DNA of 64,000 bases from Bacteroidota bacterium (GCA_947496065.1 CANMBF010000001.1:5443-69442), one strand, 5' to 3'. Positions 2,616 to 61,452 are shown, counted from the first letter of the stretch. Notes: generated by a model not told the origin, from the letters alone. Translations and numbers: made by a program.

Positions 2616-3301
2616 ACTTATTCCTAATACCTGCAAGAGGGGGTTCCAAAGGTTTACCTGGTAAAAATATCAAACCATTGAGCGGCAAACCACTCATTAT
2701 TCACTCACTTGAATTTGCTCATCAATGTAAAAATGAAGAAGACATTGTTTTGTTATCTACTGATGATAATGAGATTAAAGCGGTTGCGGAACAATACGGA
2801 TTCACGGTTCCTTTTTTAAGACCCGCTGAACTGGCTTCTGACACAGCATCAGTCGAAGAAGCAATTCACTTTGCAATTGAGGAATACAAAAAACAAGGAC
2901 TTACTTTTAATAAAATAATTCTTTTACAACCCACTTCTCCCTTCCGAAATATGCAACATTACCAAGACATGTTAGCATTGCACAATGGGGAAACCGAAAT
3001 GGTGGTGAGTGTTTCATTGAGCAAACAAAATCCCTATTTCAATCTTTTTGAAGAGCAAGCAAATGGATACTTAACCTTGTCTAAAAAAAGTGATTTTGCA
3101 AGAAGACAAGATTGCCCTGACGTTTACCAATACAATGGCAATATTTATATCATCGATGTAAACGCATTGATTTCAAAAAAACGGGTGGTCTATTTCGATA
3201 AAATAAAGAAATACGTGATAGGACCTGAATACGCTATTGATATAGATACAGAATTAGACTTTAAATTTGCAGAAGAAATAGCGAAAAACAACCATGGATA
3301 A
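2612..3301 (+). CDS. neuA: CMP-nonulosonic acid synthetase (acylneuraminate cytidylyltransferase, NeuA/LegF family)
   Basis: I chose the start at ATG 2612, in an ATGA overlap with the upstream stop. MNLFLIPARGGSKGLPGKNIKPL is the CMP-sugar synthetase P-loop-like motif. The longer track ORF (2546) overlaps the upstream gene. Confidence 0.8.
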   Translation: MNLFLIPARGGSKGLPGKNIKPLSGKPLIIHSLEFAHQCKNEEDIVLLSTDDNEIKAVAEQYGFTVPFLRPAELASDTASVEEAIHFAIEEYKKQGLTFNKIILLQPTSPFRNMQHYQDMLALHNGETEMVVSVSLSKQNPYFNLFEEQANGYLTLSKKSDFARRQDCPDVYQYNGNIYIIDVNALISKKRVVYFDKIKKYVIGPEYAIDIDTELDFKFAEEIAKNNHG

Positions 3302-5441: not shown

Positions 5442-6823
5442 GTGAACAGGTAGACATATTAAATTTTGAATTTTCAACCAGAGGTATCAGGGATATTGGT
5501 ATCGTTGAGCCTTCACTTTCCTACCTAGAATTAAAATACAAACTTAAAATTGTGAGAGCTTGTATCTCCGATAATTTTTGTGCACTTATAAAAAAATACA
5601 AACCAAGTCTTATCGTTACCTCAAATGGTATTGGAACCGTTAACCATCATGAAATGGTTAAGTACGCCAGTTTGAAGGGTATTAAAGTGATTACCTTCAT
5701 CTCTGAAGGTGATATGGTAGACATAAAGGAAAATGTAGAAATACTGTTTTGGGGCAACAATAAAGACAAAGTTTTTTACGAACATGCCAACCTGCAATGG
5801 TCTGAAAAAAACATTCAACTCATTCTTAAACACATTTCTGAAGCAAAAGAATACAACTTGTTTTGCGCTGGTGGTACTGGATTTGACCGCTATCAGTTTT
5901 TACAACTAAAATCGAAAACAACTTTTTATTCTCAATACCCACAATTTAAACATTACAAAAAAATTATTGGGTTAGCGGGCTTTCCATTTTACTTTTTTTT
6001 AAGTGATTTATATAAAAAAGATGGGCAATGGAATAATATGCACCTCGATCACGATGCCTGTGATACCATGGCCGCCCAAAAAGAACCCTTGCGATTAATG
6101 TACCATGAACTTGTTAAAAACAATCCTGATACATTGTTCATTTTAAAATACCATCCTTCTGATATCATGCAAGAATTGAGTGAATTTTATCAACTCAATC
6201 AATATGAAAATACACTTTCCATTTTCAGAGAAGAAAATATTGACGATGTGATTAATATCTCAGATTTATGGATAGGCTTCGAATCAACTACTTGTTTAGA
6301 GGCTTGGTTGATAGGCAAAACAACCTTCATAGCCAACCCCGAGAACGTTCCTTTTGTGCGCTCTATAATTTCTTCTGGTAGTCCACATTATGGCAGTTAT
6401 GAAAGCTTAAATGCTGCCATCAAAGCTTTTTTTGAGAGTGGTCATTCAAATGATTTTGAAAACCTTAAAAGAGAAAGAGACAATGCCATTGCACAAGTTA
6501 TTGGATTTGGCGATGGTCTGAATCACAAGCGAGCAGGCGACTTTATTTATAACGCCCTTAGTGAAAAGAGTAAAGCGCGCAAAGAAGACACTGATTTTAT
6601 TGCTGCCATTGAAAAAAAATATGCAAGCATGGATTTTAGAAAAAAAATGAGAAGTATCCTTTACAAAACACCGCTCATATTCATTCCTAAAATAAAAAAA
6701 GAGTACTTGAAAGATCAGCAAAAAGCCAATGAATTTACAACTGAAAAACGCGAAGCTTTTGCAAGTTTATACCGAAATTCATTGATTGAATTTTATAAAA
6801 TAAATAACATTCACCTTAATTGA
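5438..6823 (+). CDS. Hypothetical protein; possible GT-B 'HP-motif' (sialyl/Kdo/glycerophosphate-type) transferase
   Basis: 461 aa with a 4-nt overlap on the previous gene. FILKYHPSD followed by a ...GFESTTCLEAWL... arrangement resembles the HP and S/T motifs of capsule/NulO transferases. The family assignment is tentative. Confidence 0.55.
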   Translation: MSEQVDILNFEFSTRGIRDIGIVEPSLSYLELKYKLKIVRACISDNFCALIKKYKPSLIVTSNGIGTVNHHEMVKYASLKGIKVITFISEGDMVDIKENVEILFWGNNKDKVFYEHANLQWSEKNIQLILKHISEAKEYNLFCAGGTGFDRYQFLQLKSKTTFYSQYPQFKHYKKIIGLAGFPFYFFLSDLYKKDGQWNNMHLDHDACDTMAAQKEPLRLMYHELVKNNPDTLFILKYHPSDIMQELSEFYQLNQYENTLSIFREENIDDVINISDLWIGFESTTCLEAWLIGKTTFIANPENVPFVRSIISSGSPHYGSYESLNAAIKAFFESGHSNDFENLKRERDNAIAQVIGFGDGLNHKRAGDFIYNALSEKSKARKEDTDFIAAIEKKYASMDFRKKMRSILYKTPLIFIPKIKKEYLKDQQKANEFTTEKREAFASLYRNSLIEFYKINNIHLN

Positions 6824-15641: not shown

Positions 15642-15905
15642 CTATCTTTTGATAAATTTAGCAGATGTTAAGCTGCCATCATTGTTTAATATATTTAGAA
15701 AATAAATGCCTTTTACTAATTGTCTGATATCAAATTGTACATTAGACCCATTGATATTTGAAGTTGTTGTTAAAGTTACTGCTTTGCCATTGGCATCCAT
15801 AATGCTAATCGCTGATTCAACTTCTACTGTTTCGGTGAAACTTATATTTAAATAATCTGAAGTTGGGTTAGGGTATACACTTACTGTGCTGATAACATTG
15901 TTCAA
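15642..15905 (-). CDS. Orphan T9SS type-A C-terminal sorting domain ORF (CTD only; an expressed mini-protein or a gene remnant)
   Basis: 87 aa: VYPNPTSDYLNISF...ISIMDANGK......GIYFLNI....GSLTSAKFIKR is a complete Por/T9SS CTD. There is no signal peptide or cargo domain. The frame is closed by TGA immediately upstream, and the only available start is TTG. Confidence 0.45.
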   Translation of the reverse strand: MNNVISTVSVYPNPTSDYLNISFTETVEVESAISIMDANGKAVTLTTTSNINGSNVQFDIRQLVKGIYFLNILNNDGSLTSAKFIKR

Positions 15906-15959
15906 TCATATTTATTTTAGTTTTTAATCTTAAAGCTGTTTTAATTCTTAAAGACGGCA

Positions 15960-15967
15960 CAAATATA
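15960..15967 (-). promoter_or_regulatory. -7 promoter box TATATTTG upstream of the orphan CTD ORF
   Basis: Exact TAnnTTTG on the minus strand, 54 nt upstream of TTG 15905. Confidence 0.45.
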
Positions 15968-15969
15968 AG

Positions 15970-15987
15970 ATAGTACTTTTATACTAT
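15970..15987. promoter_or_regulatory. Palindromic operator candidate, ATAGTA-cttta..-TACTAT (TAGTA-N6-TACTA), copy C
   Basis: TAGTA (15971-15975), a 6-nt spacer, TACTA (15982-15986). The half-sites and spacing match the copies at 19173 and 19364. It abuts the -7 box at 15960-15967. Confidence 0.5.
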
Positions 15988-16232
15988 GTTCATAAACTAA
16001 GTATAAAACGGTAAAATATTTTGCAAAACGCTGTTTTACACTGTAATAATTTTTTATGGCACTAAGTACTTTTACACAATTAAAGAAATATATTTATAAT
16101 TTAGTATGAAATACTTTAAGGTTTTTAGCTCAAAAAGCGAATTTAAAAAAATTAAAAAATTACTAGCTAACTAAAAATTAATTGAGATTGAAATGAAATT
16201 TTTGACCCTAAAATTCCAAATTCAGTCGGCAT

Positions 16233-16264
16233 AAAAAAACCCCATTTGAAAAAACAAATGGGGT
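16233..16264 (-). terminator. Rho-independent terminator of the AOS-fusion/small-ORF transcription unit
   Basis: The minus strand reads CCCCATTTG-tttttt-CAAATGGGG followed by TTTTTTT. This is a 9-bp GC-containing stem in otherwise AT-rich DNA, 33 nt after the small ORF stop. Confidence 0.75.
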
Positions 16265-16296
16265 TCAAAATTTAAAATATGGTTAAGTTGTATTGC

Positions 16297-16548
16297 TTAT
16301 ATTTCTTTGTCTAAATCAAAATTTCTACAATAGAAATTAGCAACATAAGTAAGGGTTAATGGTTTGACATCTAAAGTATTACCCATATTATCAACCAGCA
16401 CCTCAACGAAATAATTGTAAATAGAATAAAGTTCTAATTTGAATCCTTTGGTAAGTTTTACTTCGCATACAAATAGCGATTTGTTGCTCAAGATTTGCAA
16501 CCTTGAGTTGTTGTTAAAAGTGTTTAATTCGAGTTGTGTAATCAGCAT
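16297..16548 (-). CDS. Small hypothetical protein co-transcribed with the AOS fusion (83 aa from ATG 16548; 104 aa if TTG 16611 is used)
   Basis: The ORF lies between the fusion-gene stop (16633) and the terminator. I recognise no family. The longer form adds a hydrophobic VIILLLLLW segment. Confidence 0.4.
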   Translation of the reverse strand: MLITQLELNTFNNNSRLQILSNKSLFVCEVKLTKGFKLELYSIYNYFVEVLVDNMGNTLDVKPLTLTYVANFYCRNFDLDKEI

Positions 16549-16632
16549 TATTTTAGTTTTGGATAGTTTTAAATTCCATAACAAAAGTAAAAGAATAATT
16601 ACTTTAAACAAAAATATTTTTAAATTTTACAA

Positions 16633-19098
16633 CTAATTGACAGCGTTTTCGCCCTCATAAACATTAACACTTTGATTACTTGATATTTGCATAGATTCTA
16701 TTACAGCTGCATTAAAGTGATCGTTGGCTTGCATGTAAGCAACAGTTTTATAAGCATCAGCACCCATTCTACGCTTTTCTAATGAAGCAGTAAATCCAAG
16801 ATTTATTGAAGTGCATTTTAAATAGTTGGCTCTCAAAATTACTTGATATAGTGCCTGACGGTAAACATTTATTTCAAATTGTTCAGATTTATCGACGCCA
16901 ATGAAAATAGCATTGTACACATCGCCTGATTTGTAATTGAACACAACGGCTACTTCTTTTAGTTCATCCTTGGCTTCGCCAGTTTTTAGCTTAACAGATA
17001 AAACTTCCCAATTGGGTGAATTGGCTATATTTTCAAATAAGTTAATGGGTAAATCAAACGTATTCAGTTTAAAACTGCTCCCTTTAATTTGGTTATAAAG
17101 TTTAAACCAATGCTTAATTTGTTGATCTGTAGGATTTTTAACAACCTCACATTCTATTAAATTGACGTGTTTTAAAACTTGACCTCTAAAATGCTTTCTT
17201 GCTTTGTGGGTCAAAGAAGCGATAAATTCAGTTTCATTGGTCCAAGTTAATTCCTGGTGCACATTTCTCTCTGGCATTTGGGTTTTAAAATAGCCATTAC
17301 CTAACATCGCTTTATCTAATTCTGTATTGCCATCATCAAAATCTCTCAACATAATAGAACCCGCATTGTATTTTTTCATTAAGGCAGAGGCCATCCAATA
17401 CAATTCGTTAAACGCTTGTTTTTTATATTCACTTTTTTCATTGATATAGACATGTCCACCTTCTGTTAGCAATGAACCGGTCATTACCATTAAAGAAGTT
17501 AGATAATAGGGATCGCTTGTTTTTCTTATTATTTCAATTTTATGAGAAATGGTTTCATGAGAAAGCATGTCATCTTTGCACAAAGCAGTTGTAAAGAAAG
17601 TTGCTAGCACAACTCTTTGGCTTTTGTCCTTTACTATGAGATAGTCAAATTCCCAATTGTTTTCAATCAAACTATTGTTTTTAAATGTTTTTTCAAGAAA
17701 TAACAAGCCTTCATAGTCAAAACTACCTTTTCCTTGAAAAATCGCATTCCACTCTTCCTTCTTGATTTCGGAAATGGATTGGTACTTTTCTAGAATTAAA
17801 TTAGATGGCTTAATAATTGGCTGGAAGGTGTCTTCTGTATTCGTTTCGCCTGGATTATCAATCTTAAATGCTTTATATATTTGGTCTCTAGAAATATTTT
17901 GTTCAAGTAAAACCTCATCAAAATGTCTAGCCATGGAGGTGATCATACCTTCAATTTGTTTAAATGTGTGCAATCTAGTAATGGTAAATCTCACACCTGT
18001 ATTTTTCATTGGCACTGCTGGAAAAGCACCAAGATTTGTGTAATAACCATCATCTAGCATTCTTTTGATTAATTGGTAACCTACCTTTGGTAAACAAACA
18101 CCAATAAAGAATACGGGTGAGTTTAATTCCTTAATAAGCGGTAAGCCAGCCTTCTTAATCATTAGGTTGGCAAACTTGATATTTTCTTGCAAGTCTTCTT
18201 GCATTTTTATTATTTCATCGGATAAATGTATATCAGCTGCTGCTAATGCTGCTCCTAATGCTGCAGGCTGCATAGGTCCAGAAGTAATCATTGGACCGCC
18301 GCAAGTTCTTACTAGGCTTGCCATTTCTTCATTAGGAAAAATCATAGCACCACCACCACTTGCAAAGGCTTTGTTCAAACTTGTAGTCAAAACCATTCTT
18401 TCGTGCAAATCATGATTTTGAAGTACAAATCCTCTTCCATTCTTGCCGAAACTACTCATGCCATGCGCATCGTCAACATAAAAGTTAAACTTAGGGTATT
18501 TATCTAATAAGTCATATATGGCATCAATAGGCGCGCCATCACCATACATTGAATAAATACCATCTGCCATATACCAAACCTTTTCGTACTTCTTGCTAAG
18601 TTGGATAATTCTATCTTCTAATAAGTCCATTCTATTATGTCTCAGTAATTCGATGAGAATTCCTTTTGGCTTTAGAAGTGTTGTCGCTGTTTGAATAGAA
18701 CTGTGTACCTGGTGGTCTAGAACTACAGCATCTTTTTCTCCTATTATAACAGGTAATGTAGAGATGTGCCCCAACGTTGTCGTAGGAGTAACTACACAAT
18801 AACCTCCAAATAACTGGTTTAACTTAGATTCAAGTTGTTGATAATGTATGGAGGATAAATAAGCCCTTGAAGCTGAAAATTGTGTTCCGTAACCTTCCAA
18901 AGCTTTAATAGCGCCAGCCTTTAAACGCGGGTCAAATTCTAAACCAAGATAACTACAAGAGCTAAAATTGACTAGTTCTTTGTCGTTGATTTTTAGCATA
19001 TTACCTTCTAATATTTCATTAGAAACATTTAGATGTAAGATGCCACTGTTCTTTCCATCGGTAATCACGTCATTGATGGTTGTAAGAAAATTGTTCAT
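16633..19098 (-). CDS. Fusion protein: N-terminal PLP-dependent alpha-oxoamine synthase (BioF/Kbl/Spt/CqsA family) plus C-terminal FemAB/BioF2-like GNAT-fold acyltransferase domain
   Basis: 821 aa. The AOS part (about aa 40-400) has SCSYLGL, HSSIQ, YVDDAHGMSSFGKNGRG, and the PLP lysine in TTSLNKAFASGGG. The C-terminal ~380 aa (WN.IF......FDYEGL.FLE..., ...YRQALYQ.I..A......INLGFTA) resemble the DUF482/Acetyltransf_6 type. Confidence 0.8.
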   Translation of the reverse strand: MNNFLTTINDVITDGKNSGILHLNVSNEILEGNMLKINDKELVNFSSCSYLGLEFDPRLKAGAIKALEGYGTQFSASRAYLSSIHYQQLESKLNQLFGGYCVVTPTTTLGHISTLPVIIGEKDAVVLDHQVHSSIQTATTLLKPKGILIELLRHNRMDLLEDRIIQLSKKYEKVWYMADGIYSMYGDGAPIDAIYDLLDKYPKFNFYVDDAHGMSSFGKNGRGFVLQNHDLHERMVLTTSLNKAFASGGGAMIFPNEEMASLVRTCGGPMITSGPMQPAALGAALAAADIHLSDEIIKMQEDLQENIKFANLMIKKAGLPLIKELNSPVFFIGVCLPKVGYQLIKRMLDDGYYTNLGAFPAVPMKNTGVRFTITRLHTFKQIEGMITSMARHFDEVLLEQNISRDQIYKAFKIDNPGETNTEDTFQPIIKPSNLILEKYQSISEIKKEEWNAIFQGKGSFDYEGLLFLEKTFKNNSLIENNWEFDYLIVKDKSQRVVLATFFTTALCKDDMLSHETISHKIEIIRKTSDPYYLTSLMVMTGSLLTEGGHVYINEKSEYKKQAFNELYWMASALMKKYNAGSIMLRDFDDGNTELDKAMLGNGYFKTQMPERNVHQELTWTNETEFIASLTHKARKHFRGQVLKHVNLIECEVVKNPTDQQIKHWFKLYNQIKGSSFKLNTFDLPINLFENIANSPNWEVLSVKLKTGEAKDELKEVAVVFNYKSGDVYNAIFIGVDKSEQFEINVYRQALYQVILRANYLKCTSINLGFTASLEKRRMGADAYKTVAYMQANDHFNAAVIESMQISSNQSVNVYEGENAVN

Positions 19099-19124
19099 AA
19101 CTTATGGATAATTAATTATTGATA

Positions 19125-19132
19125 CAAAGATG
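19125..19132 (-). promoter_or_regulatory. Near-consensus -7 box (CATCTTTG) for the AOS-fusion gene
   Basis: 7/8 match to TAnnTTTG, 26 nt upstream of ATG 19098. Confidence 0.3.
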
Positions 19133-19171
19133 AGGGATTAAAATCATTAATCAAACAGTTTTCAACATTTT

Positions 19172-19189
19172 TTAGTATTTTTTTACTAG
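19172..19189. promoter_or_regulatory. Palindromic operator candidate TAGTA-tttttt-TACTA, copy A
   Basis: TAGTA (19173-19177), N6, TACTA (19184-19188). It lies 75-90 bp upstream of the fusion-gene ATG, roughly at -45 to -65 relative to the putative promoter. Confidence 0.5.
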
Positions 19190-19362
19190 GTCTATGTGTT
19201 TTTTTATCTAAGAATATGAAAATAAACAAATTACATATTTAAAAAAAAATTATAATTATAATTGCCTGTTTTCAAATGCTTTAATTTAATTTTTTTAGCA
19301 TTTTTACACTTTTTAACCCCTATATTTAACTATTTATAGCTTGTATTATTATCACTATTTAT

Positions 19363-19380
19363 CTAGTATTATAATACTAG
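19363..19380. promoter_or_regulatory. Perfect 18-bp palindrome CTAGTATTATAATACTAG (TAGTA-N6-TACTA), copy B
   Basis: Self-complementary over all 18 nt. It sits in the centre of the ~510-bp divergent intergenic region and can be read as a 7-2-7 inverted repeat. Confidence 0.55.
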
Positions 19381-19579: not shown

Positions 19580-19587
19580 TATATTTG
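19580..19587 (+). promoter_or_regulatory. -7 promoter box TATATTTG for the STAS/kinase/regulator operon
   Basis: Exact TAnnTTTG, 23 nt upstream of ATG 19611. This position argues against the longer track ORF start at 19527. Confidence 0.55.
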
Positions 19588-19610: not shown

Positions 19611-19997
19611 ATGACCAAAGCAATGGAAATTTATGAAAATCAACAAATTAAGATGGAAATTATAGATGGCATCATCCATGCCCACTACAAAGCAGGTCTT
19701 AAAATTACTTTACCAGATGCCAAAACAATCGTTGCAGAGCGATTGAATTTACTAAAAGCCAGAGTACTTCCTGGTCTTGTTTTGGATGGTGGTGTTGTAA
19801 GCATGGATAAAGCAGCCCGCGACTATTTTTCATCTCCAGAGGGAATTCAAGGTTTAAAATCAGTTGCCATTGTTGAAAATTCTTTCTTTAGCAAAATGTT
19901 AATTAACTTTTTCATGCGCATTACCAATGCCTCTATTAAAGTGAAAGCTTTTAGCAATGAGGCAGAAGCTTTGGAGTGGTTAAAAAAAGATGCTTAA
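19611..19997 (+). CDS. STAS/SpoIIAA-like small protein
   Basis: 128 aa from ATG 19611. The C-terminal pattern ...KSVAIVENSFFSKM..NFF.....A.IKVKAF.NE.EALEWL is typical of SpoIIAA-like/STAS proteins, which often precede sensor kinases in Bacteroidota. Confidence 0.55.
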   Translation: MTKAMEIYENQQIKMEIIDGIIHAHYKAGLKITLPDAKTIVAERLNLLKARVLPGLVLDGGVVSMDKAARDYFSSPEGIQGLKSVAIVENSFFSKMLINFFMRITNASIKVKAFSNEAEALEWLKKDA

Positions 19998-20043: not shown

Positions 20044-21201
20044 TTGAAAGATATTAATAATTTTGACTTGGACGAGCGCTTCATGCAGCTCGAAGATGTA
20101 CTACTAGCCTATTCACATGGAGATTTTTCAAAAAAACTCTCTATTTCTGATAGGTTAGATCCCATAGATACTGTGATGTCTGGAATAAACATGCTTGGAG
20201 AGGAACTTGAAGAGACAACTATAAAAAGGGACTTTTTTAACTCGGCGTTTCACTCTATTACAGATAGTTTAGTGGTGATTAATAATTCGGGTATTATTAT
20301 AGATTTAAACGAAAGTTTCATTTGTCTGCTTGAATTACAGAAAGAGGATATTATTGGCAAGAATTTAACAAGTTTTTTAAAGTTTAAAAGTTTTGAGAAG
20401 ACCATTCAATCCTTATATAAGAATCAAAAAACAATCGATTTCGAATCCGAAATTCAAACTTCGCAAGATAAAAAAATAATGGTTGAATGCCATGTTTCTG
20501 TGATTGATAATAACAAATGCCATTCTTTGGTAAAAATTCACGATTTAACCTATAAAATTCAACAGGAAGCATCAAGAATTGCCACCATTATTAAAACACA
20601 GGAAGAGGAAAGAAATCGAGTTGCCTCAGATTTACATGATAGCATTGGACAGCAAATATCTGCTTTAAAATTTTATTTTGATTCTATTCAAAAGCAAAAA
20701 GATGATAAGCTGAGAACAGTGCTTTTGAAAAAGACTGAATCTTTGATTGATAACGTGGCAGATGAAATCAGAAATATTTGCTTCCAATTAATGCCAAGAT
20801 CTGTTGAAAAATTTGGATTATCCGATTCTATTAAACAATTGGCCGACATCATTCAATTTAGTACTGGTATTCAATTTGATTTGAAATTACAAGAGTCAAA
20901 AATAAAAATTGACTCCAATGTTTCGATGTCTGTTTACAGAATTATACAAGAGTTTGTAAATAACTCTATTAAGCATGCCAAATGCAAGAATATAAAGGTT
21001 AATTTTGAGGTCAAACCAAAAGTATTAACGCTAATAATGATCGACGATGGTGTTGGTTTTGGAGAATCTACAAGTAAAAGAAAAGGCAATGGATTAGACA
21101 ACATTAACTTGCGGGTCAAATACCTAAATGGAGAAGTTGAATTCATTTCAGAAAAAGATAAGGGCGTTATATTGAATATTAGCATACCTTTGAACTTATA
21201 A
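20044..21201 (+). CDS. Cytoplasmic sensor histidine kinase (PAS + HisKA_3 + HATPase_c, NarX/DegS class)
   Basis: 385 aa with a TTG start and no TM segments. It has a PAS-like block (FHSITDSLVVINNSGIIIDLNESF...IGKN), the H-box EERNRVASDLHDSIGQQ, the N-box IIQEFVNNSIKHA, and the G-box DDGVGF...GNGL.N. Confidence 0.8.
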   Translation: MKDINNFDLDERFMQLEDVLLAYSHGDFSKKLSISDRLDPIDTVMSGINMLGEELEETTIKRDFFNSAFHSITDSLVVINNSGIIIDLNESFICLLELQKEDIIGKNLTSFLKFKSFEKTIQSLYKNQKTIDFESEIQTSQDKKIMVECHVSVIDNNKCHSLVKIHDLTYKIQQEASRIATIIKTQEEERNRVASDLHDSIGQQISALKFYFDSIQKQKDDKLRTVLLKKTESLIDNVADEIRNICFQLMPRSVEKFGLSDSIKQLADIIQFSTGIQFDLKLQESKIKIDSNVSMSVYRIIQEFVNNSIKHAKCKNIKVNFEVKPKVLTLIMIDDGVGFGESTSKRKGNGLDNINLRVKYLNGEVEFISEKDKGVILNISIPLNL

Positions 21202-21205
21202 CATT

Positions 21206-21922
21206 ATGCAAAAACTAGTAAAAATATTGATTGTAGATGACCATCCAATGATTAGAGATGGTTTAAAAACCATGCTTGAGATAGGATGTGAAGACATGGT
21301 TTTCAAAGTATTTGATTGCGATAATACTGAAGAAGCTGTTGAGTATCTAAAAAATGAAAAAATGAAAGTCGCTTTAGTTGATTATCAGTTAATTGATCTT
21401 GATGGTGCCTTAGTTACTTCAGCGCTAATGGAAGTGAACCCCAAAATTAACATTTTAGGCATTTCAAATTATAATGAAATAAACCACATTCATGATATGT
21501 TAAAGGCCGGAGCAAAAGGTTATACGTTAAAAAATATTTCTTCAGAAAACCTTTTTAACGGTATAAAAATCTTATTGAATGGCGGAACATTCTTCTCTCC
21601 AGAGGTAGCGCATCTGCTAGCCAATCAGTACTATAAAAAATTAACTGAAAAATCAGGTAAAAAGAAAGGCCCTAACTTCATTAGCAATTCTGAACAAACT
21701 GATGGCAACGAGCTTTTAGATAGACTTTCAAAAAGAGAAATAGAAATTTTAACATGCATTGCAAACGAAATGACGAATGAGGAAATTGCGGTAAAACTTG
21801 AATTAAGCAAAAGAACAGTCGACAACCACCGTCAAAACATGTTGAATAAACTTAAAGTAAAAAACTCTATGGGGTTACTACTTATAGCAATGAAAGCTGG
21901 TTTATTGGAATACAAAAAGTAG
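21206..21922 (+). CDS. NarL/FixJ(LuxR)-family response regulator
   Basis: 238 aa. The REC domain has ILIVDDHPMIRDGL, ..LVDYQL.DLDG, and KAGAKGY. A long basic linker follows, then the GerE HTH LSKREIEILTCIANEMTNEEIA..L.LS.RTVDNHRQN...KL. Confidence 0.85.
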   Translation: MQKLVKILIVDDHPMIRDGLKTMLEIGCEDMVFKVFDCDNTEEAVEYLKNEKMKVALVDYQLIDLDGALVTSALMEVNPKINILGISNYNEINHIHDMLKAGAKGYTLKNISSENLFNGIKILLNGGTFFSPEVAHLLANQYYKKLTEKSGKKKGPNFISNSEQTDGNELLDRLSKREIEILTCIANEMTNEEIAVKLELSKRTVDNHRQNMLNKLKVKNSMGLLLIAMKAGLLEYKK

Positions 21923-58240: not shown

Positions 58241-60097
58241 ATGTACTTAGATAAATATGATATAATAGTGGTAGGTGCCGGTCATGCTGGATGTGAAGCA
58301 GCGCATGCCGCCGCTACCATGGGGTCAAAAGTCTTAATTGTAACCATGAACATGGAAACAATCGCTAAGATGAGTTGTAATCCGGCCATGGGTGGGGTGG
58401 CCAAAGGACAAATCATCAGGGAGATTGATGCATTGGGTGGTATGTCAGGAATCATTACTGATTTAACAATGCTTCAATTTCGGATGTTAAATAGATCTAA
58501 AGGTGCTGCTATGTGGAGCCCAAGAGCACAATCAGATAGAATGAGGTTCTCTGAGGAATGGCGATTGAGATTAGAACAAAATTTAAATATAGACTTTCTT
58601 CAAGATAGTGTAGTCAATGTAATGTTCGAAAACAACACAGCAACTGCTGTAGTGACGAGTTTAGGATATACTATCAAAACTAGAAGTATTATATTGACCA
58701 GTGGTACTTTTCTAAATGGTTTAATACATATCGGCGAGAAACACTTCGGCGGAGGAAGAATGGCAGAAAAAAACAGCCAAGGCATTACAGAGTGTTTAGA
58801 GATGGCTGGATTTGAATCTGGAAGAATGAAGACAGGCACTCCTCCAAGGGTTGATGGTCGAAGTTTGAACTACCAAAAAATGGAAAGACAAGAAGGTGAT
58901 ACAGATGGCAATAAATTTTCATTTTCGAAAGAGACCAGCCCTTTAAGAAAACAATTGCCCTGCTATATCACCTACACAAACAATGCAGTTCATGACATTC
59001 TGAGAGAAGGATTTGATAAGTCGCCAATGTTTAATGGCAGCATCAAAGGTTTAGGGCCTAGATATTGTCCATCAATCGAAGATAAAATTAACAGATTTGC
59101 TGAAAGAGATAGACACCAAATATTTGTTGAACCCGAAGGATGGAAAACTGTTGAAATGTATATCAATGGATTTTCGACTTCACTACCAGAAGATATACAA
59201 TTCAAAGCAATCAGACAAATAGCTGGCTTTGAAAACGCAAAAATATTTCGCCCAGGATATGCAATAGAATACGATTACTTTCCACCAACCCAATTAAAGC
59301 AGACACTAGAAACCAAGCTAATTGATAATTTATACTTTGCAGGACAAATTAATGGTACGACAGGATATGAAGAAGCGGCATGCCAAGGTTTAATGGCTGG
59401 GATCAATGCCCATTTAAAAAACAACGGTAAGGACCCATTTATACTTTCGCGTTCTGAAGCTTATATAGGCGTTCTAATAGATGATTTAATTAACAAAGGT
59501 ACTGATGAGCCCTACAGGATGTTTACCTCTAGAGCAGAATTTAGAATATTGCTAAGACAAGATAACGCTGACTCAAGGCTTACGAGAATTGGCAACGCTA
59601 TTGGATTAGCCTCAGAAGAAAGATTGAATGACTTAACAAAGAAAGAAGAATCAATATTCAAACTTAAAAATTATATTGAAGACTATTCTATTGAACCTGA
59701 TTTGATTAATCCTAAACTAATAGACATGGGTACAACGGAAATATCGCAGAAAATAAAGTTAGACAAAATATTAAACAGACCACAAATCGATATAAATACT
59801 TTATTAAACATTATACCTGAACTTAATACATACGAAACTGAAATTTTAGAAGAAGTTGAGATCTTGATTAAATATAGCGGATATATAGAAAAAGAAAAGC
59901 TCTTGGCAGAGAAATTGATTAGATTAGATAAGATGAAAATAAATACGAACTTTGACTATCTATCAATTACATCTCTTTCTAAAGAAAGTAGAGAAAAATT
60001 AAGTAAGCAAAAACCAGAAAGTATCGGACAAGCCTCTAGAATAAGTGGTGTATCTCCTGCCGATGTATCAATATTGCTAGTGCATTTAGGAAGATGA
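58241..60097 (+). CDS. mnmG: tRNA uridine 5-carboxymethylaminomethyl modification enzyme MnmG (GidA)
   Basis: 618 aa. It has the FAD motif DIIVVGAGHAGCEAA, then SCNPA.GG.AKG...REIDALGG, GPRYCPSIEDK, FAGQINGT.GYEEAA.QG. Confidence 0.93.
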   Translation: MYLDKYDIIVVGAGHAGCEAAHAAATMGSKVLIVTMNMETIAKMSCNPAMGGVAKGQIIREIDALGGMSGIITDLTMLQFRMLNRSKGAAMWSPRAQSDRMRFSEEWRLRLEQNLNIDFLQDSVVNVMFENNTATAVVTSLGYTIKTRSIILTSGTFLNGLIHIGEKHFGGGRMAEKNSQGITECLEMAGFESGRMKTGTPPRVDGRSLNYQKMERQEGDTDGNKFSFSKETSPLRKQLPCYITYTNNAVHDILREGFDKSPMFNGSIKGLGPRYCPSIEDKINRFAERDRHQIFVEPEGWKTVEMYINGFSTSLPEDIQFKAIRQIAGFENAKIFRPGYAIEYDYFPPTQLKQTLETKLIDNLYFAGQINGTTGYEEAACQGLMAGINAHLKNNGKDPFILSRSEAYIGVLIDDLINKGTDEPYRMFTSRAEFRILLRQDNADSRLTRIGNAIGLASEERLNDLTKKEESIFKLKNYIEDYSIEPDLINPKLIDMGTTEISQKIKLDKILNRPQIDINTLLNIIPELNTYETEILEEVEILIKYSGYIEKEKLLAEKLIRLDKMKINTNFDYLSITSLSKESREKLSKQKPESIGQASRISGVSPADVSILLVHLGR

Positions 60098-61452
60098 AGT
60101 ATATAACAAACTTTTTTATAATCATACTACTGTGTAGTTGTGCGAACATGGTAGTTCCAACTGGCGGGAAGAAAGATGAAAAAATTCCAACGTTACAATC
60201 AACCAATTTACAAAAAATTAACTTTAAGGAAACTTTAATAAAACTTCAATTTGATGAATACATAACGATTCACGAACCCACACAAAGTATTACCATTCAA
60301 CCGAATCACACAACTTTTAAAACAGAGGTAGTTAATAAGGCTGTTTACATCAAATTAGACAGTAATTTACACGATAACACAACATATACTTTAAATATTG
60401 ATAACGGAATTAAGGACTTAAACGAAAACAATAGCTACAATTTTTGTTATTCATTTGCAACTGGTGGTAATATTGATACAAATTATACTGAATATGTAAT
60501 TGATAACTTTAATAAGTATAAAAATTTAAAAATAGGGTTAACACTACAACAAGTTGATTCTATAGAATTATTAAAATTCGACTATTTGTATAGTATAAAA
60601 ACAGGTTCCGTGCGAATTGACGGTTTAAACCATCTTCCTTATAAAATATGGATATTTACAGATAAAAATTCTGACAAAATACCGGATTTATATTGTCCAA
60701 TTTATTATGATACCATCGCCATAAATAGTAGTCATAAAATTGAACTTAATAATTGGATAAATTTTAGTAATGAAAAAGTAAAGCTTTATAATACTTTTAC
60801 TAAGATTTATAAACCCATTTCAAACATTGAATCATATGGAAAGAAAAATATTTATTACATCGATCAAGATTCTGCCCTTTTCCTAAATAAAAATTCTGAT
60901 ACATTGCCTAAACTAAATTTAATAAAAGAAATTAATGATAAAATAAATAGTAATATTAAGGCTATTAATACCGGTAAAGATTATATCATAATTATTGATA
61001 AATGCGGTTTTATAAATCTAAAATTAAAAGAAAAATATAACTATACAGAGGATGGTAATTACATCTATATTGAATCTAAAACAAGGCTTGATTCTATTGG
61101 TTTTAAATTTGAAGCAAACCAAGATTCTTTTAGTTTCTATACAGTAGTTAAATATTATATAGAATCAAATAAGTTATCTTTATTAAAAATAAATAAAATA
61201 CAAAAAAATAATACATTGATTATGGTAATGTTTAAAGATGAAAAAAAAATATTTAATAAAAAAATAGTATTAAATAAAGACCAAAAATTTTACTTATATC
61301 CTGGTAAGTATTATGTTGAATTTTATAAGACGGAATACTATGAAGAACTAAGTTTTAACTTACAAAAATTAAAAAGAAGTTCTACCCCTATAATTAAACA
61401 GGAAATTATATTAAAACCTAATTGGGACGAGGTTTTACAGCTTTTATTTTAA
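60094..61452 (+). CDS. Hypothetical lipoprotein (Ig-like N-terminal domain, very AT-rich Lys/Asn/Ile-rich C-terminal half)
   Basis: 452 aa. It has a lipobox-like IILLCS|C. The N-terminal ~120 aa resemble SbsA-type Ig-like domains (P....ST......F.E.....FDEYI). It overlaps mnmG by 4 nt. Confidence 0.55.
   Translation: MKYITNFFIIILLCSCANMVVPTGGKKDEKIPTLQSTNLQKINFKETLIKLQFDEYITIHEPTQSITIQPNHTTFKTEVVNKAVYIKLDSNLHDNTTYTLNIDNGIKDLNENNSYNFCYSFATGGNIDTNYTEYVIDNFNKYKNLKIGLTLQQVDSIELLKFDYLYSIKTGSVRIDGLNHLPYKIWIFTDKNSDKIPDLYCPIYYDTIAINSSHKIELNNWINFSNEKVKLYNTFTKIYKPISNIESYGKKNIYYIDQDSALFLNKNSDTLPKLNLIKEINDKINSNIKAINTGKDYIIIIDKCGFINLKLKEKYNYTEDGNYIYIESKTRLDSIGFKFEANQDSFSFYTVVKYYIESNKLSLLKINKIQKNNTLIMVMFKDEKKIFNKKIVLNKDQKFYLYPGKYYVEFYKTEYYEELSFNLQKLKRSSTPIIKQEIILKPNWDEVLQLLF

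Follow-up and report, generated by a model that had tools for sequence, protein, structure and literature searches.

A conserved 16-bp palindrome as the predicted operator of a NarL-type two-component system in a Bacteroidota gene cassette

The sites bound by Escherichia coli NarL and NarP are "7-2-7" pairs of heptamers, TACYYMT-N2-AKRRGTA, and the ComA box of Bacillus subtilis, TTGCGG-N4-CCGCAA, is likewise an inverted repeat, although ComA sites include a third half-site. Here we analyze a locus with comparable elements in a 64,000-nucleotide stretch of DNA from a Bacteroidota bacterium (GCA_947496065.1 CANMBF010000001.1:5443-69442), which we call the window and whose positions are counted from its first letter. 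Three exact copies of the palindrome TAGTA-N6-TACTA, named sites A, B, and C, flank an operon encoding a fusion protein with an alpha-oxoamine synthase (AOS) half, divergent from an operon for a DUF7793 protein, a histidine kinase, and a LuxR/NarL-type response regulator. Our comparison with related loci makes it very probable that these sites are conserved protein operators that did not arise by chance, and the adjacent response regulator is their likely binder. Which protein binds, where the promoters lie, and whether regulation is positive or negative are inferred from sequence comparison.

The locus resembles the NarL/NarP system in several respects: the regulator combines a REC domain with a GerE helix-turn-helix (HTH), the site is a 16-bp 7-2-7 repeat (TAGTATT-AT-AATACTA here and TACGTAT-TT-ATACGTA in distant cassettes), the heptamers start with TA in both (with TAC in the distant cassettes), and the sites lie upstream of or within promoters. 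It differs in that the half-site sequence is another one and binding is predicted, that a PAS kinase without an obvious membrane segment and a STAS-like DUF7793 protein, unrelated to nitrate sensing, take the place of the sensor, and that the promoters are of the Bacteroidetes −33/−7 type, with a GTA-TAC spacing that drifts between 4, 5, and 6 bp from lineage to lineage. ComA offers the same 6-4-6 layout as TAGTAT-N4-ATACTA and is also a GerE-type response regulator, its C-terminal domain being among the PDB relatives of the window regulator, but the half-site sequence, the third half-site of ComA, and the signalling input are different. DosR (DevR) of Mycobacterium tuberculosis is a NarL-family regulator that binds a palindrome and contacts bases through Lys179, Lys182, and Asn183 (PMC5861037). 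The corresponding residues of the window regulator are Arg, Asp, and Asn, whereas the DosR box is a G+C-rich 20-bp palindrome, and the DosR regulon, with its hypoxia/NO signal received through haem kinases, is unrelated to the cassette.

The three sites are as follows.

Site A, 19173 to 19188: predicted promoter-proximal operator of the fusion operon; exact motif match, TAGTATTTTTTTACTA
Site B, 19364 to 19379: predicted distal operator; exact motif match, core of the palindrome at 19363-19380
Site C, 15971 to 15986: predicted operator in the core promoter of a now-deleted cargo gene of the type IX secretion system (T9SS); exact motif match, TAGTACTTTTATACTA

Site A, which reads TAGTAAAAAAATACTA on the gene strand, lies 75-90 nt 5' of the fusion ATG (19098, minus strand). 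Site B is embedded in a perfect 18-bp palindrome, CTAGTATTATAATACTAG (19363-19380), and 3 nt separate site C from CAAATATA (15960-15967), which is TATATTTG on the minus strand. The layout, an inverted repeat of two short half-sites spanning 16 bp, is compatible with a dimer. In the 64-kb window TAGTA-N6-TACTA has exactly 3 matches, against 0.04 expected from dinucleotide shuffles, and 0 of 100 such shuffles gave 3 matches. The two intergenic regions are 77-80% A+T, and at this composition the motif probability per position is 6.5e-6, corresponding to 0.006 expected sites in 903 bp of intergenic DNA. Allowing one mismatch added no further site in the 64-kb window, where 2.3 were expected. With a symmetric 20-bp position weight matrix (PWM) based on 21 orthologous sites, nothing in the 64-kb window other than sites A, B, and C reaches 12 bits or more, and site B has the top score (25.3 bits). 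The consensus of the 21 orthologous sites is (C)TAGTA[T/C]-W4-[A/G]TACTA(G), in extended form CTAGTAT-N4-ATACTAG.

A preliminary description of this DNA had listed the three copies, with identical half-sites and spacing, and put the chance of a match near 1e-5 per position; an exact pattern search and the values above bear this out, as they do its statement that site C abuts a −7 box. Its two weaker variants, at 19296-19311 and 16102-16116, fared differently: they are unconserved in the closest relatives (L001-L003), and we therefore reject them as sites and regard them as probable chance matches. We also rejected a dispersed repeat, such as a palindrome of the repetitive extragenic (REP) or miniature inverted-repeat transposable element (MITE) kind: the three copies in 64 kb belong to one locus and their positions are orthologous across genomes.

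An alignment of fusion homologues was used to scan species-representative genomes, which gave 80 loci; genome and metagenome loci together number 160 (L001-L160), with the fusion start usually near position 6001. The exact motif occurs in 11 of the 80 species-representative loci, nine of which are the closest relatives of the window, with fusions 66-96% identical. It had been proposed to look for the motif upstream of orthologous fusion genes, and in these nine relatives it is present there at constant positions, −282 and −90 relative to the fusion ATG, and recurs beyond the 3' end of the operon. Two metagenome loci, L081 (97% identical) and L082, have the same arrangement. All 14 close-clade loci have an orthologue of site A at −89 to −91 from the ATG, and an orthologue of site B stands at −280 to −282 in L001-L005, L010, L011, L081, and L082 (at −259 in L004), with a one-mismatch copy at −282 in L007. 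The DNA between sites A and B has diverged freely among close relatives, and the distance between the two sites is constant at 191-192 bp in seven loci (the window, L001, L002, L005, L010, L011, and L082), with 168 bp in L004. Cooperative binding, looping, or some element not yet seen may lie behind this constancy. Overall, the density of the motif in close-clade loci is 39-fold higher in the divergent intergenic region than elsewhere. Conservation within site A is asymmetric: the promoter-proximal half TACTA is invariant (14/14 close-clade loci), and the distal half is TAGTA in 6/14, TGGTA in 4/14, and degenerate in L003, L007, L008, and L009.

The case for the adjacent regulator depends on the genes that accompany the sites.

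Fusion gene, 16633 to 19098, minus strand: 821 aa (Pfam, NCBIfam, and Pfam matches of homologues)
DUF7793 (SpoIIAA/STAS-like) protein gene, 19611 to 19997, plus strand: first gene of the regulator operon (Pfam)
Histidine kinase gene, 20044 to 21201, plus strand: PAS, HisKA_3, and HATPase domains (Pfam; LiaS/UhpB/NarX-type kinases in NCBIfam)
Response regulator gene, 21206 to 21922, plus strand: 238 aa, REC and GerE (LuxR/NarL-type) HTH (PF00072, PF00196)
Regulator recognition helix TVDNHRQN, 21815 to 21838, plus strand: aligned to DosR

The operon formed by the fusion gene and a small open reading frame (ORF), orf104, is divergent from the DUF7793-kinase-regulator operon, and the regulator, whose best PDB relatives are VraR, NarL, DesR, and DosR, is the only DNA-binding protein of this cassette. 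A fusion gene facing the same three genes is found in about 76 of the 80 genome loci, down to 43% fusion identity, in Chitinophagaceae, Crocinitomicaceae, other Flavobacteriales, and further Bacteroidota groups, and most metagenome loci long enough to show gene order have the same one. Cultured strains with the cassette include Crocinitomix catalasitica ATCC 23190 (L039), Ginsengibacter hankyongi BR5-29 (L045), and Ferruginibacter paludis CECT 8366 (L053). Among the genome loci compared, the cassette has no second conserved gene for a DNA-binding protein. As the cassette's only DNA-binding protein, linked to the fusion gene across Bacteroidota, the regulator is the natural candidate for the binder of sites A-C.

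A related palindrome is found in distant cassettes. When 5-mer inverted repeats in divergent intergenic regions were counted without bias, TACGT-N6-ACGTA came out as the top palindrome, present in 19 distant loci, with 22 exact matches within 11.6 kb of intergenic DNA versus 10 in 761 kb elsewhere, a 137-fold enrichment; its general form is TAnGT-N6-ACnTA (TAnGTATTTATACnTA). All 10 outside sites are themselves intergenic, and 8 lie about 50 bp 5' of a conserved 137-aa gene next to the regulator, which is probably another regulon member in one distant subclade. This 137-aa gene (MKLLPVFLKNNISNEFYITNF...) is found immediately downstream of the regulator in L025, L034, L036, L040, L042, L046, and L047, near 3140-3175, with exact sites about 50 bp upstream. 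The presence of a related palindrome in distant cassettes suggests that the same 16-bp, 7-2-7-like operator accompanies the cassette throughout, with a different half-site in the clade of the window. The distant motif may be an independent half-site, TACGT, in the same 16-bp frame, or it may keep the core nGTAT while the spacing moves from 2 through 3 to 4 bp; both readings agree with the data. Some distant loci (e.g. L020, L033, and L051) have a second, half-degenerate site, nAnGTnTTTAATgGGTTG, at about −85 from the fusion ATG. It ends about 21 nt 5' of a −7-like box, so that it would overlap the −33 region of the fusion promoter, a class-II-like position. L072, L098, and L145, for which 6 kb of upstream sequence contains no two-component system, show no clear palindrome.

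The half-site changes together with the recognition helix. Every TAGTA-type locus has the helix T-V-D-N-H-R-Q-N, and in TAnGT-type loci the helix is mostly T-V/I-D-[T/S]-H. The Asn of the window regulator aligns without gaps with DosR Asn183, a numbering that we checked against PDB chains 1zlk and 3c3w. We tallied the base 5' of GTA in GTA-N4-6-TAC palindromes for loci with a readable regulator helix and a readable divergent intergenic region. With Asn-type regulators this base is A in 54 cases, G in 15, T in 5, and C in 0; with Thr-type regulators A 13, C 21, G 16, and T 2; and with Ser-type regulators C 26, A 21, G 17, and T 4. Distant Asn-type loci (L086, L092, L100, L151, and L080) have AAGTAT or GAGTAT half-sites even at other spacings. 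This co-variation of half-site and helix residue is consistent with the regulator as the binder. Near-identical helices (TVDNHRQN; TVDNHRNN in L080; TIDNQRNS in L151) are found with AGTAT-type half-sites at 4, 5, and 6 bp between GTA and TAC: N6 in the close clade, 15-bp sites in L013, L061, L074, and L080, and N4 in L086, L092, L100, and L151, three of which (L086, L092, and L100) have second sites at N5. Operator spacing thus appears to have drifted while half-site identity was kept.

The position of the sites relative to promoters suggests how they could act. Bacteroidetes promoters have the consensus −33 TTTG / −7 TAnnTTTG (PMC2483708; PMC6414381). A sigma-70 promoter scan of the window was uninformative (20 matches versus 22.4 expected), and promoters were therefore read by this consensus.

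Fusion-operon promoter (predicted), 19125 to 19155, minus strand: placed by the geometry common to 14 close-clade loci and the Bacteroidetes consensus
−7 box of the DUF7793 operon, 19580 to 19587, plus strand: TATATTTG; from the sequence and −7 boxes in relatives

In the window the predicted fusion promoter has a −33 TTTG (19152-19155), a 19-nt spacer, and a −7-like box, CATCTTTG (19125-19132). The arrangement [half]-N6-TACTA, 17 nt, TTT[G/T], 19 nt, nAnnTTTG, 24-27 nt (mostly 26), ATG is shared by all 14 close-clade loci, with 18 rather than 17 nt between site A and TTT[G/T] in L010. Taking TTTG-N19-TAnnTTTG as a Bacteroidetes −33/−7 promoter, we infer that site A is centred near −61 from the transcription start, which is the position of a class-I activator, and this location beside a conserved promoter suggests activation of the fusion operon. 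Sites of the C type, in relatives as in the window, are always within core promoters. In L006, L007, and L010 the cargo promoters consist of TTTG, 5 nt, and the palindrome, the last two bases of which are shared with TAnnTTTG; in the subclade of the window the palindrome ends 3 nt ahead of TAnnTTTG, and a second set of cargo paralogues has a 15-bp site variant at the same promoter place. This position suggests repression by occlusion, and activation without a −33 element is possible as an alternative. We hold the combined assignment of signs, activation at A and repression at C, to be evenly balanced.

In the model that we favour, a dimer of the phosphorylated regulator would place one GerE HTH on each half-site of (C)TAGTAT-N4-ATACTA(G), a 16-bp site in a 7-2-7-like layout. 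Bound at site A, about 61 bp 5' of the predicted start, it would most likely activate the fusion-orf104 operon in a class-I-like manner; bound at site C, where it would fill or abut the core promoter, it would most likely repress T9SS cargo genes. Site B would be a high-affinity distal site, for which cooperativity, looping, and control of the regulator's own operon are candidate roles.

Site C precedes a gene fragment in the window.

"Orphan CTD" ORF (CTD, C-terminal domain), 15642 to 15905, minus strand: 87 aa, Por_Secre_tail only (Pfam)
Cargo promoter −7 box, 15960 to 15967, minus strand: TATATTTG, 3 nt downstream of site C, from the sequence
Half-degenerate candidate site, 16063 to 16078, minus strand: TGTGTAAAAGTACTTA, shared by the window and L001-L003 as a conserved block
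Intrinsic terminator of the fusion-orf104 operon, 16237 to 16266, minus strand: 12-pair stem, then a T run

Because the terminator, which is conserved in L001, ends the fusion-orf104 operon, site C is part of another transcription unit. The genes that follow site C in L001 and L002 are intact, encode 404 and 358 aa, respectively, and have a signal peptide and Por_Secre_tail. Its orthologues generally lie just 5' of or overlapping the TAnnTTTG before 358-408 aa genes of this kind; such cargo promoters are present in L001, L002, L006, L007 (twice), L010, and probably L003, and the site stands at every cargo promoter examined in the relatives. The cargo −7 box itself is conserved in L001-L003. 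When window positions 15642-15967 are aligned with L001:5896-7195 and L081:4323-5300, about 966 bp of L001 and 814 bp of the 97%-identical L081 have no counterpart in the window. The junction falls at about 15906: the ATG that survives is no longer in frame, the signal peptide is gone, and the sorting domain alone remains, while promoter, operator, and 5' leader of the cargo gene are intact. These comparisons identify the "orphan CTD" ORF as what a deletion has left of a T9SS cargo gene of about 400 aa.

Two further elements lie near site C. The TGTGTAAAAGTACTTA block, about 92 bp upstream of site C, has one good half (GTACT), resembles the degenerate −90 site of L008 and L009, and is possibly a further operator. 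In the cargo leaders of the window (15928-15953) and L001-L003, a conserved inverted repeat, TCTTAAAG-N11-CTTTAAGA, imperfect in the window, follows directly on the cargo −7 box and may form an RNA hairpin.

The preliminary description had read the three copies as operators of one regulator, most simply the adjacent LuxR-type protein, and this is supported by positional conservation, linkage to the cassette, and the distant palindrome, while the co-variation of helix and half-site is consistent with it. Of the regulon that it proposed, the fusion operon is supported. The CTD ORF would belong to it as the remnant of a cargo gene. Autoregulation can be put forward in this clade only as a possibility, with site B some 200 bp from the −7 box of the operon that encodes the regulator.

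Several observations weigh against the adjacent regulator as the binder or against the roles given to the sites. When 111 distinct regulators are placed in a neighbour-joining tree, all of the Asn type except L018 fall into a single large clade, and with two origins only, the co-variation is statistically thin; a metagenome scan with the fusion protein of L018, the second Asn-type lineage, found no relatives. One helix with three spacings requires a flexible dimer. L008 and L009 have lost site B and have site A reduced to its promoter-proximal half (TGTGTATAAAGTACTA), and their recognition helix is identical. From site B it is about 200 bp to the DUF7793 −7 box and about 255 bp to the fusion start, distances too great for a simple RNA polymerase contact, and a promoter search for the DUF7793 operon near site B gave weak −7-like matches only. 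Promoters and transcription starts were assigned from a consensus, and the motif scan of the source genome covered the 64-kb window.

The strongest competitor to the adjacent regulator is another transcription factor encoded elsewhere, for example a Crp/Fnr-type dimer, which we consider unlikely. The sites of such dimers have a 5-N6-5 geometry and a classic class-I position of −61.5, and a CRP-like activator would suit both the 5-6-5 geometry and the −61 location of site A. L008 and L009 retain the regulator and yet have degenerate sites, and the tie between the cassette regulator and the sites is drawn from sequence comparison. However, the geometry is all that is shared, and the half-sites differ at 3 of 5 positions from the CRP/FNR consensus, TGTGA-N6-TCACA or TTGAT-N4-ATCAA; nor is there a Crp/Fnr gene in the conserved cassette among the cassette genes examined. 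An unlinked factor of any family must also be reconciled with the restriction of the motif to this locus within 64 kb, with the related palindrome in the cassette's own divergent region down to 43% fusion identity, with half-sites that change along with a residue of the cassette regulator, and with the lack of any other conserved DNA-binding gene in the cassette.

It is very improbable that the palindromes act as nucleic-acid structures, whether RNA hairpins or terminators, cruciforms, or recombination sites. Each copy could form a hairpin of 5-7 bp and a T run follows site B, but these hairpins are weak (−2.3 to −5.4 kcal/mol) and almost wholly A-U, the sites were not called in a terminator scan, and the real terminator of the operon is elsewhere. 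Sites A and C are upstream of the predicted −7 boxes and therefore should not be transcribed, conservation concerns the half-site letters and not pairing, with one half invariant at site A, and no Rfam family matched. Chance matches in A+T-rich DNA have a negligible probability and are already refuted, for even at 77-80% A+T and with 8 of the 10 fixed motif positions A or T, 0.006-0.04 copies are expected against 3 observed, at positions conserved across diverged orthologous loci.

With the adjacent regulator as the binder, the sites would constitute a new operator, of an ordinary type, and the first regulon for the NarL-type two-component system of an uncharacterised Bacteroidota cassette. 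In our literature searches we came upon no account of the cassette, DUF7793, or its control; these searches extended to AOS fusions with two-component systems, NarL-family regulators of Flavobacteria, Bacteroidetes CqsA/LqsA homologues, and bacterial ceramide-synthase fusions. Operator and promoter geometry together define a testable regulon, consisting of one enzyme operon and a set of T9SS-secreted proteins. The Asn versus Thr/Ser residue of the helix and the changes in half-site spacing provide a natural series for studies of NarL-family specificity.

The gene neighbourhood, and only that, also recalls CqsA/CqsS and LqsA/LqsS/LqsR, in which an AOS-family enzyme gene stands beside a two-component system. 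The NCBIfam model for alpha-hydroxyketone autoinducer synthases matches the fusion weakly (75 bits versus a cut-off of 428), and, unlike CqsA and LqsA, the fusion has an extra acyltransferase half. CqsS is a membrane-bound receptor kinase (PMC3285556), and no obvious membrane segment is seen in the window kinase. One could speculate that the cassette is a self-contained signalling circuit, in which the fusion would make an amino-ketone or lipid signal, the PAS kinase and DUF7793 would sense this signal or its precursor, and the regulator would feed back positively through site A and switch T9SS surface proteins oppositely through operators of the site C type. We regard this as a long shot. If it is true, the cassette would be an analogue of CqsA/CqsS or LqsA/LqsS that works by autoinduction or in a quorum-like manner. 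To our knowledge, no native circuit of this kind has been described in Bacteroidota.

The remaining features concern the proteins of the cassette and its surroundings.

orf104, 16297 to 16611, minus strand: small conserved ORF 3' of the fusion gene, kept in the close and mid clades

orf104 is probably co-transcribed with the fusion gene and has no Pfam or NCBIfam family match. The N-terminal half of the fusion is an AOS domain (pyridoxal phosphate-dependent aminotransferase class I/II; Pfam, NCBIfam), which scores well under the NCBIfam cut-offs for BioF, Spt, Kbl, and CqsA/LqsA-type synthases. Matches to PF13480/PF04339 (BioF2-like/FemAB-like acyltransferase) were seen for the C-terminal half in homologues, and a PDB sequence search with this half returned no relative. 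The absence of an obvious membrane segment from the kinase N-terminus comes from a reading of its sequence. Elsewhere in the window, the region from 60 to 62 kb is very A+T-rich (24% G+C) and its composition stands out from the remainder; at 60094-61452, directly after an mnmG/gidA-like gene, there is a 452-aa ORF that is lipoprotein-like and rich in Asn, Lys, and Ile.

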